Shown here piece after piece: positions 1,752-40,287 of a stretch of DNA of 64,000 bases. The notes under the pieces were generated by a model. It ran no database searches and was not told the DNA's origin. It saw only the letters and a list, made by a program, of their open reading frames with translations. The position numbers were made by a program, and so were the translations under genes. The stretch is from a phage. The stretch lies in the NCBI GenBank assembly GCA_037574385.1, contig GCA_037574385.1_4529.1; one strand, given 5' to 3'. Numbering within the stretch: the stretch's first letter is position 1; every line of letters begins with the position of its first letter.

Positions 1752-2114
1752 TTACAGGCTTTCAGTAAAGGTACGAGCGATAACGTCGCGCTGCTGTTCC
1801 GGAGTCAGAGAGTTAAAGCGAACTGCATAACCGGATACACGGATGGTCAGCTGCGGATATTTTTCCGGATGCTTAACTGCATCTTCCAGAGTTTCGCGAC
1901 GCAGAACGTTAACGTTCAGGTGTTGACCACCTTCAATTTTAACTTTAGGTTGATGTTCAATTTCAATTTCACGGGCATTCAAACCGTAGAAAATTTCTGG
2001 GTCTACAATAGCGTCTTCTTTAAAAGCCTTAGAGACAATAATCCGGGCTTGAGTACCGTCTTCAAAATAAATAGTGCCTTTATGTGCACCTTCAAGAATT
2101 TGATATGCTTTCAT
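1752..2114 (-). CDS. grcA: Autonomous glycyl-radical cofactor GrcA/YfiD family; chimeric: C-terminal half host-type, N-terminal half phage-type (T4 Y06I-like)
   Basis: C-terminus [59 protein letters not shown] matches E. coli GrcA with glycyl-radical motif RVSGY; N-terminal 58 aa diverged and encoded by AT-rich DNA. Confidence 0.8.
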
Positions 2115-2120
2115 ATAACC

Positions 2121-2429
2121 TCAATTAGAAAATAAATTTATCCAAGTTTTTTCTTTAATCAAAAATGGGTCGGAATTAAACGCCATTAAACTTTGAGTGA
2201 TTAATCCCTTAAATGGTCCATCAATAAATTCCATTTTGAAATGTGGAATACTAGTCATCAGTCGTGCATTAGGAGCAGTACAAAGAACCTGCTGCCCTGC
2301 GAACGGTCCTTTAGTCAAACGATATCGTTTAGGTTTAAAATGGTAAATCTCGTAATTTTCTACAAGGGCCCTTTTATTGCATACTGGGCTGTTATAACAA
2401 TACTCAAAAACTTCAATAGTGGTCATCAT
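2121..2429 (-). CDS. Hypothetical phage protein (102 aa; start at MMTTIEV, ATGA overlap with upstream stop)
   Basis: ORF in early-gene orientation; start overlaps stop of 2426..2965 (translational coupling). Confidence 0.45.
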   Translation of the reverse strand: MMTTIEVFEYCYNSPVCNKRALVENYEIYHFKPKRYRLTKGPFAGQQVLCTAPNARLMTSIPHFKMEFIDGPFKGLITQSLMAFNSDPFLIKEKTWINLFSN

Positions 2430-2965
2430 TGCATTCCAATCACAAAAAATTGAGGACGAGCAATACCGCCGTTGCAATATTTGCTTTTACAGCAGTGTTG
2501 GACTGTTTTAATATGGACATTGTAAATCTTATCCATATCAGGAGCTTTAATAGGCTCGTCAATTATATACAGAATACGAGAAAGCGTTAATCCACGGAAT
2601 TTAGAACCTTCATTGCCAATAAAACTACGAACAGAATCAGTAAATAAACGGAATCGAATATCGTCGCTAGAATAACGAGAAAATTCTTTTTTAATGTTGC
2701 CAACAGAAATTTTAGCATAAGCTGAAGTATTAGAAAGAACAATAACTGTTCCACCATCATACAGCCAATTAACAGCAAAATTAGTTACTGCAGTTGATTT
2801 ACCTGATTGTCTGCCGCCGTCTAAACGAAGTGTACAGTACTGCTTGAGTACATCTTCAAATGGTGGGACATAACCGTTCTTACAAATTTCTTCTACTCTA
2901 GCATCAGAATGGTGTGTAAAAGCATTCATCAGGGATAGATAAGGTCCAGTTAAAAACGTTCTCAT
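2426..2965 (-). CDS. P-loop NTPase of unknown function
   Basis: Walker A GGRQSGKST and Walker B-like ILYIIDEP. Confidence 0.55.
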   Translation of the reverse strand: MRTFLTGPYLSLMNAFTHHSDARVEEICKNGYVPPFEDVLKQYCTLRLDGGRQSGKSTAVTNFAVNWLYDGGTVIVLSNTSAYAKISVGNIKKEFSRYSSDDIRFRLFTDSVRSFIGNEGSKFRGLTLSRILYIIDEPIKAPDMDKIYNVHIKTVQHCCKSKYCNGGIARPQFFVIGMQ

Positions 2966-3138
2966 TTAGTTTCTCTTAAGGTTGGGGCCATTCCATGGCA
3001 CATGTTAGGTCCTTCGACTCACTATGTAAACCCATTACCGCACTTGGGCTCGACCTTATTACAGGTTGGAAAAGGTACATCACTCAGAGGACTCGACGTT
3101 CATGAGGAGAGGTTGCGTTTCCCTTTATTAGGCAAGAA

Positions 3139-3468
3139 TTATACTCTAGGCTTTTGAGCTTGTTTGGTATTGGATTCCCACGCTGCTTTGGTAATTTTGT
3201 TAGCGGCATAGCCAAAGGCATTAGATAGAACACCTTTAGAGTTGAATACATCCAATCCAATAAGTACACCGGCTGCGTTAAATTTAGGAGCAAAGTACGC
3301 ATTAGTTTTAGAAAGAGCTTTTTTCAATTCAGGGTCTTGAACCAAGCCATCAAAAACGCCTTTACTATTTACTTTATATGTTACTTTGGGATTTTTACCT
3401 TCTTCGATAGCAGCTTTCTGTTCCGCAGATAATGTAACTTCAGTGATAAACTCTTGATATGTTTTCAT
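3139..3468 (-). CDS. Capsid-targeted internal protein candidate (CTS-bearing), 109 aa
   Basis: N-terminus MKTYQEFITE matches the T4 internal-protein capsid-targeting sequence (MKTYQEFIAE). Confidence 0.6.
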   Translation of the reverse strand: MKTYQEFITEVTLSAEQKAAIEEGKNPKVTYKVNSKGVFDGLVQDPELKKALSKTNAYFAPKFNAAGVLIGLDVFNSKGVLSNAFGYAANKITKAAWESNTKQAQKPRV

Positions 3469-3509: not shown

Positions 3510-4088
3510 TTAATTACCACGGGCTGCATTAGCAACGGCGTAAGCGTACTGAACATTAGCGTCTTTAAACGTACCTTTAGAGGTATCTATTTCTGCCTTA
3601 AAGCCGCCTTTAGCCATAACATCGGCAAATTCTTTACGGAAAGCCATTGCGTCAAGACCTTTCCATGATGATTTATGCTTGGCAAATTCAAGACCAGCGT
3701 AGTTGACAGCTTTAGCCAATTTATTATCAATGACCCATTTACCTGCTTTAGGCACAAACTTCGGGCCTTTTTGTTTAGAGAACAGTTTTAAATTCCAGCG
3801 ACGAAGGTCACTGTCGGCTTTAACAAAAGCTGCGTCTAAGTTACTAGCAACAACATCTTCAATATGAGCAAATTTAAGACCATCAACTTCAATATTTAGA
3901 TCGTTACGCCAGCGAAGTCCTTCCCAAGCGAAGGCTTTAAAGTCGGAAGCCTTTGTAGCTAAGTACCGTTCAATAGGAGCAGTTTTAGGGTCAAAGCCGT
4001 TTCCGCCACGATAATTCCACTCGTCCTTATTAATGCCTTGGACTTTTCCTGCAAAGGCCTCGGCGATAAATTCTTTATATGTTTTCAT
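3510..4088 (-). CDS. Capsid-targeted internal protein candidate, 192 aa (size of T4 IPIII); start at internal MKTYKEFIAEA
   Basis: CTS MKTYKEFIAE preceded by RBS AAGGAAAC; ORF-track ORF extends 14 codons upstream. Confidence 0.6.
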   Translation of the reverse strand: MKTYKEFIAEAFAGKVQGINKDEWNYRGGNGFDPKTAPIERYLATKASDFKAFAWEGLRWRNDLNIEVDGLKFAHIEDVVASNLDAAFVKADSDLRRWNLKLFSKQKGPKFVPKAGKWVIDNKLAKAVNYAGLEFAKHKSSWKGLDAMAFRKEFADVMAKGGFKAEIDTSKGTFKDANVQYAYAVANAARGN

Positions 4089-4153
4089 TTTTGTTTCCTT
4101 GTTTGTTTTGATAGAGTAATTATACCCCATATTAATACTTAAGCGTAAACAAT

Positions 4154-4414
4154 TTAAGCTTTACCGCCAGAAATAATTCCGAAGTTGTTAAAATCGTATC
4201 CAATATCGTCAGCATCTACTTTAGGGCTTGCTACAACATAAGCAATTTCACGACGTTTTGCATAGGTGTTGATTTCTTTACCATCGCCACCTAAGAAAGA
4301 ATACCCATTACGTTTTAATGAGCCAAAGTCTTCGGCATCACCAACGAAAGCTTTAACTTTAAATTTGGGGTCTTTGGCATCTGCTTCAGTGATAAATTCT
4401 TGATACATTTTCAT
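4154..4414 (-). CDS. Capsid-targeted internal protein candidate, 86 aa; start at internal MKMYQEFITEA
   Basis: CTS-like N-terminus MKMYQEFITE with RBS AAGGAAAAA; immediately downstream of denV. Confidence 0.6.
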   Translation of the reverse strand: MKMYQEFITEADAKDPKFKVKAFVGDAEDFGSLKRNGYSFLGGDGKEINTYAKRREIAYVVASPKVDADDIGYDFNNFGIISGGKA

Positions 4415-4421
4415 TTTTTCC

Positions 4422-4835
4422 TTAGTAAATTGATTTACCATAGTATTTGTACCAAGTCGGACGTTGAGCAATTTTTTCATCTAAGCGTGCTTGACTTATC
4501 GCAATGGACGCTTCGGACGGGACATAATTATTACGAAATTCGGCAGGGATGTCGGAAATATCCTGGACTGTCGTGTCCTTTATTTTGAAACCACGTTTCA
4601 AACATTCAGCGATTAGCTCGATTTGACGTAAACGTAAAAATTCGAGTTTGTCATAAAAGAATGTTACGTGACCTGTGCCTAAGATAAATGTTGGAGAGAT
4701 TTTAAAATCTTTTACACGTTTACCGTTTTGGACATGTTTACGGACTGCACCAAATACGCGTGGTAATTCACGATACTCAGCCATAAGATGTTGGTCGGTC
4801 AGTTCAGAAACAAGTGTTAAATTGATACGAGTCAT
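4422..4835 (-). CDS. denV: Endonuclease V (pyrimidine-dimer DNA glycosylase/AP lyase), start at MTRINLTLV
   Basis: Near-identical over full length to T4 DenV as recalled ([12 protein letters not shown]...[10 protein letters not shown]); RBS GGAGGAAATT. Confidence 0.9.
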
Positions 4836-4863
4836 AATTTCCTCCAAGTAGTTGATAGATGTA

Positions 4864-4893: not shown

Positions 4894-5175
4894 CTATTTT
4901 TCTGAAGCGCCTGAAATATATTTTTCAAGACGTTGTTTCATCAGCGAGCCGTTCTTAGCGATTTCTTCCGGTTTATCGCACATACGCAACAAGGCTTCAA
5001 GCTTAACGATATCGCTGGTACGTTCAAATTTGCGAGTATCTATCTTACTAGCAAGTTCAGAAATACGTGCTAATAGACTTTCAGCTTCAACCAAAGCTGC
5101 ACCTAGCTTAGTTGCAAATGTGTCAGTAGCTTCGTTAAGAATAGATTCTGATAAAAATTCACTATATGTTTTCAT
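4894..5175 (-). CDS. Capsid-targeted internal protein candidate, 93 aa; start at [10 protein letters not shown]
   Basis: CTS-like N-terminus; its ATG overlaps the TGA stop of gene e (ATGA coupling); sits at the T4 ipII/ipIII position. Confidence 0.6.
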
Positions 5176-5660
5176 ATATACGCTTTCCAAGTTCCTGTTT
5201 TAAATGTTGAGATTACGCGTTTCGCACGATTAGGTGTCTGACGATACCATTTAGATTGGGCTAGATTTACTGCCGCTTCATCCCAACGTTTCTGTTGAAG
5301 CATACGAAGAGAATTAGTAAAACCAGCAACGCCTGCTACACCCATTTGGAAGACCATATTGACTAATGCACATCGACGAACCGCGTCTAAAGAATCATAC
5401 ACTGGTTTAAGTTTAGCATTACCCAAGATTCCACGAACGGCTTTATCAACATCTTCATTAAATAGCTTTTCAGCCTCATCAAGGGTAATTGTACCGTTGC
5501 ATTTACGACCGATCATTCTATCAAGTTCAGCTTTAGCTACGGCTAAAGACGGGTTCTTTGTTACCAAATGGCCTATGCCAATAGTCCAAAAGCCTTCGGT
5601 GTCTTTGTATAAAGACAGTCTAAGACCTTCGTCATTACGAAGCATTTCAAATATATTCAT
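5172..5660 (-). CDS. e: Phage lysozyme (endolysin, T4 gene e), start at MNIFEMLR
   Basis: Collinear high identity with T4 lysozyme as recalled ([27 protein letters not shown]...[31 protein letters not shown]). Confidence 0.95.
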
Positions 5661-6153: not shown

Positions 6154-6379
6154 CTCGGTCCCATGATTTGGCCATTAATTCGGACATAAATTCTTCAATG
6201 CGTGTTTCTTTAGATGGACTTTCACTATTAGAGACCGCAAGTTTGTAATCTGCAATAGGACGGAACAAATCAAGGTCCATATTAAGATCGTCTTTGATTT
6301 TTTCTTCTGACACATCTTTATCATATGTGTACAGATAACTATCACACGATTCTGATTTAATGTAAATTGCTATACTCAT
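6143..6379 (-). CDS. Hypothetical small acidic protein (start at second ATG, SD AGGAA)
   Basis: ORF with RBS; ATG overlaps upstream stop. Confidence 0.4.
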   Translation of the reverse strand: MSIAIYIKSESCDSYLYTYDKDVSEEKIKDDLNMDLDLFRPIADYKLAVSNSESPSKETRIEEFMSELMAKSWDRDDE

Positions 6380-6867
6380 CTCAAATTCCTGCATTCGGTA
6401 ATAAAACGTTCAACTTCATTATTCTTGGCCTTTATCTTGTCTTTACGTTCCTGTAAACTACTTTTAACAAGATTAATAATGATGCCTATAGTACCTCCAC
6501 CAATAATACCACCAATAATACTTACGATAGTAGATGCTAATAATATAGCGATAATATCTGGTATGGCAAAGGCACTTACTTTAGTACTAAAAAACCATAC
6601 CGACGGTACAAATATAATCCATCCTGTTATCCATTGGCACTTATTGAAAAACTTTTCAAGCTCAGCTTGAGTTGTTCGTATTACTTCATCGATAGGTTGA
6701 TATCCATTAATGTATCTGTTCACGATAATACCTGCTGGTTGGTCGATTTTAAATTCTTGACAAATACGTTTCACTAAGTAGGATGGACATCCTGTCCAAT
6801 CTACTGAATAGTACGAAATACCTTCATTACCGTCGTCTATATTAGACCAATATGTTTTGTTAATCAT
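6376..6867 (-). CDS. Hypothetical membrane protein (163 aa)
   Basis: Long hydrophobic, Gly/Ile-rich segment WITGWIIFVPSVWFF...IVSIIGGIIGGGTIGIIINLV. Confidence 0.5.
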   Translation of the reverse strand: MINKTYWSNIDDGNEGISYYSVDWTGCPSYLVKRICQEFKIDQPAGIIVNRYINGYQPIDEVIRTTQAELEKFFNKCQWITGWIIFVPSVWFFSTKVSAFAIPDIIAILLASTIVSIIGGIIGGGTIGIIINLVKSSLQERKDKIKAKNNEVERFITECRNLR

Positions 6868-7553
6868 TACCAGCCTTCCATAGGGAATTCCAGATAAACT
6901 TGAGCATTGACACGAATTTCATTGGTAATCTTTTTAACTCGGTCTGTATTACGAGATACACGTCCGAACCAACGCCATCCATTACTAATTGCACGAGAAC
7001 CAGTGTGCCATGTTTGCCAATCAAACTGAAGAAGAGTACGGTCTGGAGCTTCCCATTTCTCTAGTTCACCTTTTTCAATTTTTTCGAGGACTTCTTTGTG
7101 CCACTGGCGATAGATAAGTTCGCCATCAGGAATCTGACTGAACTCTGCAGTTCCTGTTGCAAAATGAGTAGGACACACGTCAGCGTTAACAAGGCCAAGA
7201 ATATGTTCAGACAAATAGCGAGGATTGTCATAATCAGGTTGTCCTGCAGTAATAAAATGTTGACCAACCGGAATATCCGGACGTGGTACATCGTCATGGT
7301 GATAACCTGGGATAGCAGGGTACCAACCAGGCATCAGCATGTGGACTCGTGAATCAAATACTACATCCGAGCCTTTCCAATCGTCAGGGAGATTTTGGAT
7401 AAAGCTACGAGTAATTGGACCGCCGTTATCCCAAGCAAAACTCAAATCACAGTTAAAGAACATTTGTTCATTTTTGATTTGGTCATTTTGTACGTTATGA
7501 GCAAAACCACCTACTGCACGAGCTTGACTATTAAACACTTTAGAACTATTCAT
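6867..7553 (-). CDS. Hypothetical protein (228 aa), no recognisable motif
   Basis: Long ORF in hyperplastic region; His/Asp-rich patches (HHDD, PTHFATG). Confidence 0.5.
   Translation of the reverse strand: MNSSKVFNSQARAVGGFAHNVQNDQIKNEQMFFNCDLSFAWDNGGPITRSFIQNLPDDWKGSDVVFDSRVHMLMPGWYPAIPGYHHDDVPRPDIPVGQHFITAGQPDYDNPRYLSEHILGLVNADVCPTHFATGTAEFSQIPDGELIYRQWHKEVLEKIEKGELEKWEAPDRTLLQFDWQTWHTGSRAISNGWRWFGRVSRNTDRVKKITNEIRVNAQVYLEFPMEGW

Positions 7554-37961: not shown

Positions 37962-40287
<2,326 letters not shown>

Follow-up and report, generated by a model that had tools for sequence, protein, structure and literature searches.

What is a P-loop protein of only 179 residues doing in the early, accessory region of a T4-type phage, and is it really without relatives? 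This question is raised by a stretch of phage DNA of 64,000 nucleotides (contig GCA_037574385.1_4529.1 of GenBank assembly GCA_037574385.1, hereafter the window), in which an intact open reading frame (ORF) with an ATG start occupies positions 2426-2965 of the minus strand. A preliminary description, made from the letters of the sequence, presented its product as an orphan P-loop nucleoside triphosphatase (NTPase), encoded directly downstream of a gene resembling grcA and possibly a kinase or a regulator of host processes. We report that the ORF is the counterpart of gene vs.8 of phage T4, that its product corresponds to one subdomain of the ATPase of the large terminase gp17, and that the gene is preceded by a conserved structured RNA. 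The ORF itself and its location in the early, accessory region of a T4-type phage were both borne out.

Identity of the gene

The 179-residue protein is 89% identical to T4 Vs.8 over all of its 179 residues, which correspond to the C-terminal 179 of the T4 protein (BLASTP, E 2e-124), and its residues 3-179 match PHROG 1488, a family listed with "unknown function" (E 2e-78). At the DNA level the vs.8 locus is about 97-98% identical to that of phage phiC120 (~97.7%), and the DNA from position 1745 onward shows 97-98% identity to the RB69-like phages of the genus Mosigvirus (phiC120, ESh15, RB69). Sequence comparison thus shows that the phage is RB69/phiC120-like (Mosigvirus) and that its ORF at 2426-2965 is orthologous to T4 Vs.8; the protein can be clearly assigned to a T4 family and is not an orphan. 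The remote-homology search, structure prediction and comparison with T4 gene order that had been proposed for this locus upheld the P-loop domain and the coupling to the next gene but not the orphan status, as they led to a terminase-like Vs.8 in the T4 gene order.

The Walker A motif, or P-loop, was read from the sequence as D49-GGRQSGKS-57 (2795..2821, minus strand), with an Arg-Gln of terminase type within the loop, and the Walker B motif as I131-LYIIDEP-138 (2552..2575, minus strand), with D136 followed by the catalytic E137. Across 21 homologues with identities down to 38%, residues D49, G50, G51, R52, Q53, S54, G55 and K56 are invariant, as are L132, I134, E137 and P138 of Walker B, where I135 and D136 are conserved in at least 90% of the sequences. 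The pair R124-G125, placed 12-13 residues before Walker B, is also invariant in this set, together with R113, the N-terminal helix motif YL.LM.AF and a C-terminal G-x-Q. Since the Walker motifs do not vary among these homologues they are not chance matches, and the loss of conservation that would have spoken against them did not occur.

The ATG start of vs.8 lies 7 nt after a Shine-Dalgarno-like AAGAG (2973..2977, minus strand), part of a purine-rich block kept in the alignments. An in-frame TAA (2966-2968) abuts this ATG, so an N-terminal extension is impossible in this phage. This bears on the T4 record (NP_049732, positions 6254-6913 of the T4 locus), in which Vs.8 has 219 residues. Its 40 extra N-terminal residues traverse the RNA element described below and are not conserved as coding sequence, and the models of 194-196 residues given for other phages likewise have their starts within that conserved RNA; one such start is the AUG in the hairpin AUGUGCCAAGGAAUGGCCC, which yields a protein beginning "MCQGMAQ...". 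Conservation of the protein starts at M(R/K)xFLT, and judging by these alignments the public gene models are probably too long. In some database records homologues of Vs.8 or Vs.7 carry the label "endoribonuclease", a name that nothing found here backs and which looks carried over from the nearby regB gene.

The family is small. A profile search among 1.84 billion representative proteins recovered only 56 representatives, almost all of them stand-alone proteins of 160-185 residues, and the most distant have a His in place of the Walker A Lys. Full-length copies persist across many T4-type genera, down to 35-40% identity. Truncated alleles of 57-133 residues are found in T2 (BFVD A0A386KE76), SV76, Lutter (A0A7D5KS97) and some metagenomic phages, which indicates that vs.8 is dispensable under some conditions. 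Such repeated loss or breakage would fit a gene under conflicting selection, for instance as a trigger of the bacterial defence protein Avs2, to which we return below.

Fold and terminase ancestry of Vs.8

The AlphaFold2 model of Vs.8 is confident (mean predicted local distance difference test score, pLDDT, 82.6; predicted template modelling score, pTM, 0.83) and consists of a five-stranded RecA-like domain placed after two helices. Its top structural matches are the RecA domains of helicases and terminases, with no kinases among them. When Vs.8 was compared with the Pfam, NCBIfam and PADLOC models none scored above threshold; the best PADLOC match was a weak one to PtuA AAA (E 0.011, 12.8 bits), so that there is no significant match to a defence or anti-defence family in that collection. 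The large-terminase family phrog_2, on the other hand, matches this Vs.8 with E 9.6e-7 and 19 of 47 members of the Vs.8 family (best 3.9e-8).

The window encodes its own gp17 at 38449-40284. When Vs.8 was aligned by hhalign with this single gp17 sequence the match was weak (14% probability), whereas a profile of 47 Vs.8 sequences aligned with a profile of 21 gp17 N-terminal sequences over 163 columns with 96.6% probability (E 5e-10), covering residues 5-175 of Vs.8 and 120-296 of gp17; the match is significant only with diverse profiles on both sides. In this profile alignment the RQSGKS of Vs.8 falls on RQLGKT of gp17 (162-167, preceded by S161), R124-G125 on R245-G246 and D136-E137 on D255-E256, the Walker B segment being matched by gp17 251-256. 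Vs.8 therefore has in common with ATPase subdomain I of gp17 (PDB 2o0h) the RecA-like fold, a P-loop of the form Arg-Gln-x-Gly-Lys-Ser/Thr and an Arg-Gly placed 11-13 residues before the Asp-Glu of Walker B. It follows from these data that Vs.8 consists of one RecA-like P-loop domain and is a homologue of that subdomain.

The differences are equally clear. Gp17 has 611 residues against the 179 of Vs.8, its N-terminal ~120 residues are without counterpart in Vs.8, and it is encoded in the late packaging operon whereas vs.8 lies in the early accessory region. Vs.8 ends at residue 179, just after the fifth beta-strand, that is, right after the strand that would bear the terminase coupling motif. 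As both ATPase subdomain II and the RNase-H-like nuclease domain are lacking, Vs.8 is a terminase-derived ATPase core and not a functional large terminase, and its earlier portrayal as a compact stand-alone P-loop NTPase with no second domain is supported.

In the terminase of phage P74-26 a trans-acting arginine finger is placed 11 residues before the Walker B glutamate. This spacing equals that of R245-E256 in gp17 and is near that of R124-E137 in Vs.8, which we take as a lead only.

Other P-loop families were considered. A relationship with the coupling protein TcpA was set aside, since the sequence match in the PDB is weak and local (E 0.06-0.1) and was judged to be generic P-loop similarity. 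A helicase of superfamily 1 or 2 (SF1/SF2) was rejected because Vs.8 has one RecA domain only and matches no helicase family at threshold. The RecA1 domains of SF2 helicases (DEAD-box, RIG-I-like, Mfd/RecG) and the PhoH-like ATPases are comparable in fold, but Vs.8 has no second RecA domain, shows no sequence match to helicase families above noise, and has a P-loop of the terminase type.

Coupling of vs.8 to vs.7

The vs.8 gene is followed on the same strand by vs.7 (2121..2429, minus), encoding 102 residues with 63% identity to T4 Vs.7 (PHROG 2049), and then by vs.6 (1752..2114, minus), the third gene of the unit, whose GrcA-like glycyl-radical cofactor product is 93% identical to T4 Vs.6 and matches Pfam Gly_radical and TIGR04365. 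The TGA stop of vs.8 (2426-2428) overlaps the ATG of vs.7 (2427-2429) in the sequence ATGA. The translational coupling deduced earlier from this overlap was confirmed and found to be general: in all 30 related loci that have vs.7 the two genes overlap by 4 nt or 1 nt.

The position of the pair is also conserved. In each of 35 T4-type IMG/VR contigs vs.8 has the denV/internal-protein genes on one side and the position of vs.7 on the other, and the gene order is matched in T4, phiC120 and mar005P1. Vs.7 follows vs.8 in ~30 of the 35 loci, vs.6 is present in ~12, and this difference indicates that the conserved unit is vs.8-vs.7 and that the grcA neighbour is incidental. The minus-strand order (P-loop gene, 102-residue gene, grcA-like gene) moreover means that vs.8 is not adjacent to the grcA-like gene, nor directly downstream of it as had been stated. 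As most related loci are without vs.6, we rejected the idea that Vs.8 and the GrcA-like Vs.6 are functionally linked.

The conserved core of Vs.7 comprises two GPF(K/A)G motifs (Y-x-F-x-x-GPFKG ... EFI-x-GP-x-KG), which from the sequence look like an internal repeat and which may resemble the KOW motif of NusG. No Pfam match was obtained for Vs.7, and its AlphaFold2 model, built from 4 close sequences, is unreliable (pLDDT 51).

In intact relatives the vs.8-vs.7-(vs.6) unit runs on into vs.5, vs.4, vs.3 and regB. The product of vs.4 is the anti-CBASS sponge Acb2. That of T4 vs.3, a gene of the same cluster as vs.8, is the anti-Thoeris sponge TadIV-1, and a cloned vs.8-vs.3 fragment with its native upstream region was active in uninfected cells (PMC13243611).

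Possible role of Vs.8

The P-loop gene belongs to a family that is already known and has been partly characterised, as a recent article shows (PMC13601566, Nat Commun, 3 August 2026). There, proteins of T4 and PhiC120 were screened with AlphaFold 3 against the terminase sensor EcAvs2, and vs.8 from T4 and PhiC120 caused toxicity if expressed together with EcAvs2. Vs.8 was described as having sequence homology, Walker motifs and structure in common with the T4 terminase ATPase, and it was modelled by AlphaFold 3 in the terminase pocket of EcAvs2 with a bridging ATP (interface score ipTM 0.84). Our terminase assignment was made independently and agrees with this. The native role of Vs.8 is left open in that article, where an anti-defence function is suggested, one that Avs2 came to recognise. 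Two other Avs2 activators named there that are not terminases, Ksap1 and Ksap2, are, like Vs.8, small phage proteins with a beta-sheet core resembling that of the terminase ATPase, and all three are reported to fit the sensor pocket of Avs2 and to be restricted to particular phage lineages. Unlike Ksap1 and Ksap2, Vs.8 has, according to this source, real sequence homology to terminase and its Walker motifs.

Taking all this together, the overall explanation that we favour, with slightly more than even confidence, is that the T4 Vs.8 orthologue of this phage is a terminase-ATPase mimic which acts with Vs.7, heads its operon and is likely to serve in counter-defence or as a decoy. Vs.8 would bind, and probably hydrolyse, ATP, would work in a complex with the co-translated Vs.7 and, as a mimic of the terminase ATPase, would be produced before the late terminase itself. 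Most likely it would then counter host factors that bind the terminase ATPase fold, or divert them, and Avs2 would have learned to detect the mimic. Truncated alleles are to be expected for a conditionally useful gene in an arms race, and we count those of vs.8 in favour of the counter-defence role.

Several points weigh against this explanation. The ATP hydrolysis by Vs.8, its complex with Vs.7 and its anti-defence activity are all inferred, as is the early timing of vs.8, which is deduced from genome position and a weak promoter-like site. The sole phenotype reported for Vs.8 is activation of a defence protein, not its inhibition. The Pfam model Terminase_6N (PF03237) gives Vs.8 16.1 bits against a gathering score of 22, and its matches to 16 of the 47 family members are all below threshold. 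Finally, the invariant catalytic Glu and Arg would be superfluous in a passive decoy and fit an enzyme better.

Vs.8 may accordingly be a working ATPase of phage or host nucleic-acid metabolism with no part in immunity, in which Vs.7 is the substrate-binding partner and which either remodels a nucleic acid or protein complex or regulates packaging through mixed assemblies with gp17 or gp16. We keep this as the main rival, possible though clearly less probable than a counter-defence role. The full catalytic set is kept (K56, E137, R52 and R124-G125 invariant, D136 in at least 90%), Vs.8 has as its homologue in gp17 the part responsible for oligomerisation and ATP hydrolysis, and vs.8 is strictly coupled in translation to vs.7. 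Lone RecA domains, as is established for ATPases of the ASCE group (RecA-like P-loop NTPases), normally need a partner or a ring for activity. Yet Vs.8 has a single RecA domain and none for nucleic-acid binding, neither Pfam nor the unreliable model of Vs.7 points to a known fold or family for the partner, and truncation in T2, SV76 and Lutter shows that vs.8 can be dispensed with; its neighbours are accessory and anti-defence genes and not packaging genes. The same truncated copies, with the lack of a known phenotype in the phage life cycle, could be taken to mean that Vs.8 is a functionless, decaying remnant of a terminase duplication kept by linkage only; but full-length copies with invariant catalytic motifs persist to 35-40% identity in many T4-type genera, the position of vs.8 and its coupling to vs.7 are conserved, and conservation extends to features foreign to generic P-loops, namely the helix YLSLMNAF at the N-terminus and FFVIGMQ at the C-terminus, all of which makes this highly improbable. 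We judge just as improbable the proposal made in the preliminary description, namely that Vs.8 acts as a small kinase on nucleotides or proteins, or regulates host processes in a generic way. It could draw on the P-loop, the small size, the early region and weak thymidine-kinase Pfam matches in 2 of 47 family members (E 0.013). A nucleoside or nucleotide kinase was rejected, however, on the Walker B motif, which ends in Asp-Glu with the catalytic Glu typical of ASCE hydrolases, on a model with no LID or nucleoside-monophosphate-binding segment, and on top structural and profile matches that include no kinase, the best being helicase and terminase RecA domains and, by profile-profile comparison, gp17. 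Together these features indicate an NTP hydrolase of the ASCE type.

A conserved structured RNA upstream of vs.8

Between vs.8 and the preceding gene lie 173 nt whose conservation exceeds that of the Vs.8 protein, even where the latter is only 35-45% identical. The alignment of this block across relatives contains 1- and 2-nt indels, which rule out that either strand codes for protein here. Just upstream of vs.8 the block holds a conserved structured RNA of ~134 nt (2984..3117, minus strand) with six helices predicted by RNAalifold from ten sequences and supported by covariation: a closing helix P0, a hairpin P1, a helix P3 that encloses hairpin P2 and P4, and a 3' hairpin P5.

In the MAFFT alignment of the ten sequences 94.4% of the cells are paired, with 7 compensatory pairs, none of 500 shuffles paired as well, and slid controls reached 33-46%, a contrast that is inflated because the structure was derived from the same sequences. 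With 38 distinct element sequences the corresponding values are 94.7% and 11 compensatory pairs; this alignment was fitted to the covariance model and so favours the structure, but the same covarying columns are present in the unfitted alignment. Pairs of P0 show 4-5 pair types among the 38 sequences, and the closing helix occurs as CCG/CGG, CGC/GYG, CAC/GUG, CCA/UGG, CUG/CAG, CGA/UCG and UCG/CGA. Frequent G-U pairs favour the vs.8-sense strand. Folding of the single sequence gave no excess stability (z +1.0), and RNAalifold found little in gappy alignments of the element.

The covariance model yields a single hit in the window (2984-3117, minus strand, 147.6 bits) and, in every related locus but one, a copy upstream of vs.8 and on its strand; at two loci the element occurs in tandem copies. 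Rfam gave no match at the gathering threshold in the window and none at E up to 1 within 2900-3200. Comparison also ruled out that the element is rnaC or rnaD of T4.

The promoter/stem-loop (PeSL) cassettes of T4-type phages are short motifs repeated through the genome (PMC2839356, PMC4122927), and the element resembles them in two respects. Its 3' part has a promoter-like site, TTTACA-N17-TAACAT, beside a hairpin (3002..3030, minus strand; 9 of 12 matches in a consensus scan). The status of this site is uncertain: such sites are not more numerous in the region than in shuffles, most relatives retain its GTTTAC, for which the T4 group has GTAAAT, and in further groups inserted hairpins disrupt the spacing. 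The second resemblance concerns four related loci (L020, 5433-5995, and L021, L022 and L031) in which the element lies ~400 nt further upstream. A gene for an internal-protein-like product of 104 residues (MKTYKEFITEAKA...) is inserted there between the RNA and vs.8, and a second copy of the 3' hairpin of the element, with the ribosome-binding region, stands before vs.8; this corresponds to the cassette insertions known from the T4 internal-protein locus. The element differs from PeSL cassettes, however, in its size of ~134 nt, in its covarying multi-helix 5' domain, in a core that recurs by tRNA arrays in unrelated phages, and in being single. A pattern search allowing 3 mismatches and the covariance model each found one copy in the 64 kb, for which reason a repeated PeSL cassette was rejected. 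The element at 2984-3117, a candidate new structured RNA, is either a leader of vs.8 or an independent small-RNA gene.

The core of the RNA in other phages

Within a three-way junction of the element, a covarying helix closes a near-invariant core of ~31 nt, CCUGUAAnAAGGUCGAGCCnnAGnGCGGUAA. When metagenomes and IMG/VR were scanned for this pattern, the core turned up also in unrelated phage contigs of 46-140 kb. The sequences that flank it there differ yet remain complementary (CCA/UGG, CCCU/AGGG, CUGGU/GCCAG, CGCG/CGCG, UACGCG/UGCGUG). No match to Vs.8 or Vs.7 was found among the ORFs around the core at the 9 loci checked, and on 9 divergent core loci Rfam recognised tRNAs only. In most of these contigs the core is on the same strand as arrays of tRNA genes, usually 200-600 nt upstream of them, a placement that suggests a function tied to tRNA or translation. 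Some groups of core loci share long conserved flanks, which suggests a larger RNA.

We therefore propose, with the chances about evenly balanced, that 2984-3117 belongs to an undescribed class of structured phage RNA which in T4-type phages heads the vs.8-vs.3 counter-defence operon, as a ligand- or protein-sensing cis-regulatory leader or as a small RNA, and which in unrelated phages lies upstream of tRNA arrays.

Junction with host DNA and neighbouring genes

Bases 1-1936 of the window are 100% identical to the yfiE-eamB-grcA region of E. coli, which contributes the 3' part of grcA, and identity to RB69/phiC120-like phages begins at 1745. The overlap of the host and phage parts is the 3' ~180 nt of grcA/vs.6, almost identical in E. 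coli, phiC120 and T4. By its sequence the window is thus a chimera of host and phage DNA whose join falls within a repeat common to both, with the 3' end of vs.6 fused to the E. coli chromosome. The junction was found in no complete RefSeq E. coli genome, and the chimera is either an assembly artefact or a real homologous recombinant. The normal continuation of the operon into vs.5, vs.4, vs.3 and regB is missing in this window.

E. coli grcA is matched almost base for base by the 3' ~180 nt of vs.6 here (1757-1936), in T4 and in phiC120, whereas the 5' half of the gene is unrelated to it; this speaks for an exchange of the segment by host and phage, either recent or repeated.

Upstream of vs.8, four genes for proteins resembling internal head proteins were observed on the minus strand (3139-3468, 3510-4130, 4154-4480 and 4894-5190), with the targeting leader MKTY(Q/K)EFI, and denV (4422-4847) is interleaved with them. 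In T4 denV stands directly before vs.8, whereas here the internal-protein genes are directly upstream of it.

Significance

For the gene itself the value of this analysis lies mainly in its annotation: the proper name is Vs.8, with a description as terminase-ATPase-like and as an activator of Avs2, in place of "hypothetical", "orphan" or "endoribonuclease". To the passages of PMC13601566 consulted we add three points: vs.8 and vs.7 are strictly coupled in translation throughout the subfamily, Vs.8 is mapped onto gp17 at the level of residues, and the T4 gene model of 219 residues extends across a non-coding element. Should Vs.8 be a terminase mimic directed against immunity, it would be a case in which a phage has duplicated just the protein that host sensors seek out.

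We attach more importance to the upstream RNA than to the P-loop gene, since this RNA is unannotated although T4 is among the best-studied genomes, and it links the counter-defence operon of T4-type phages with the tRNA clusters of other phages.

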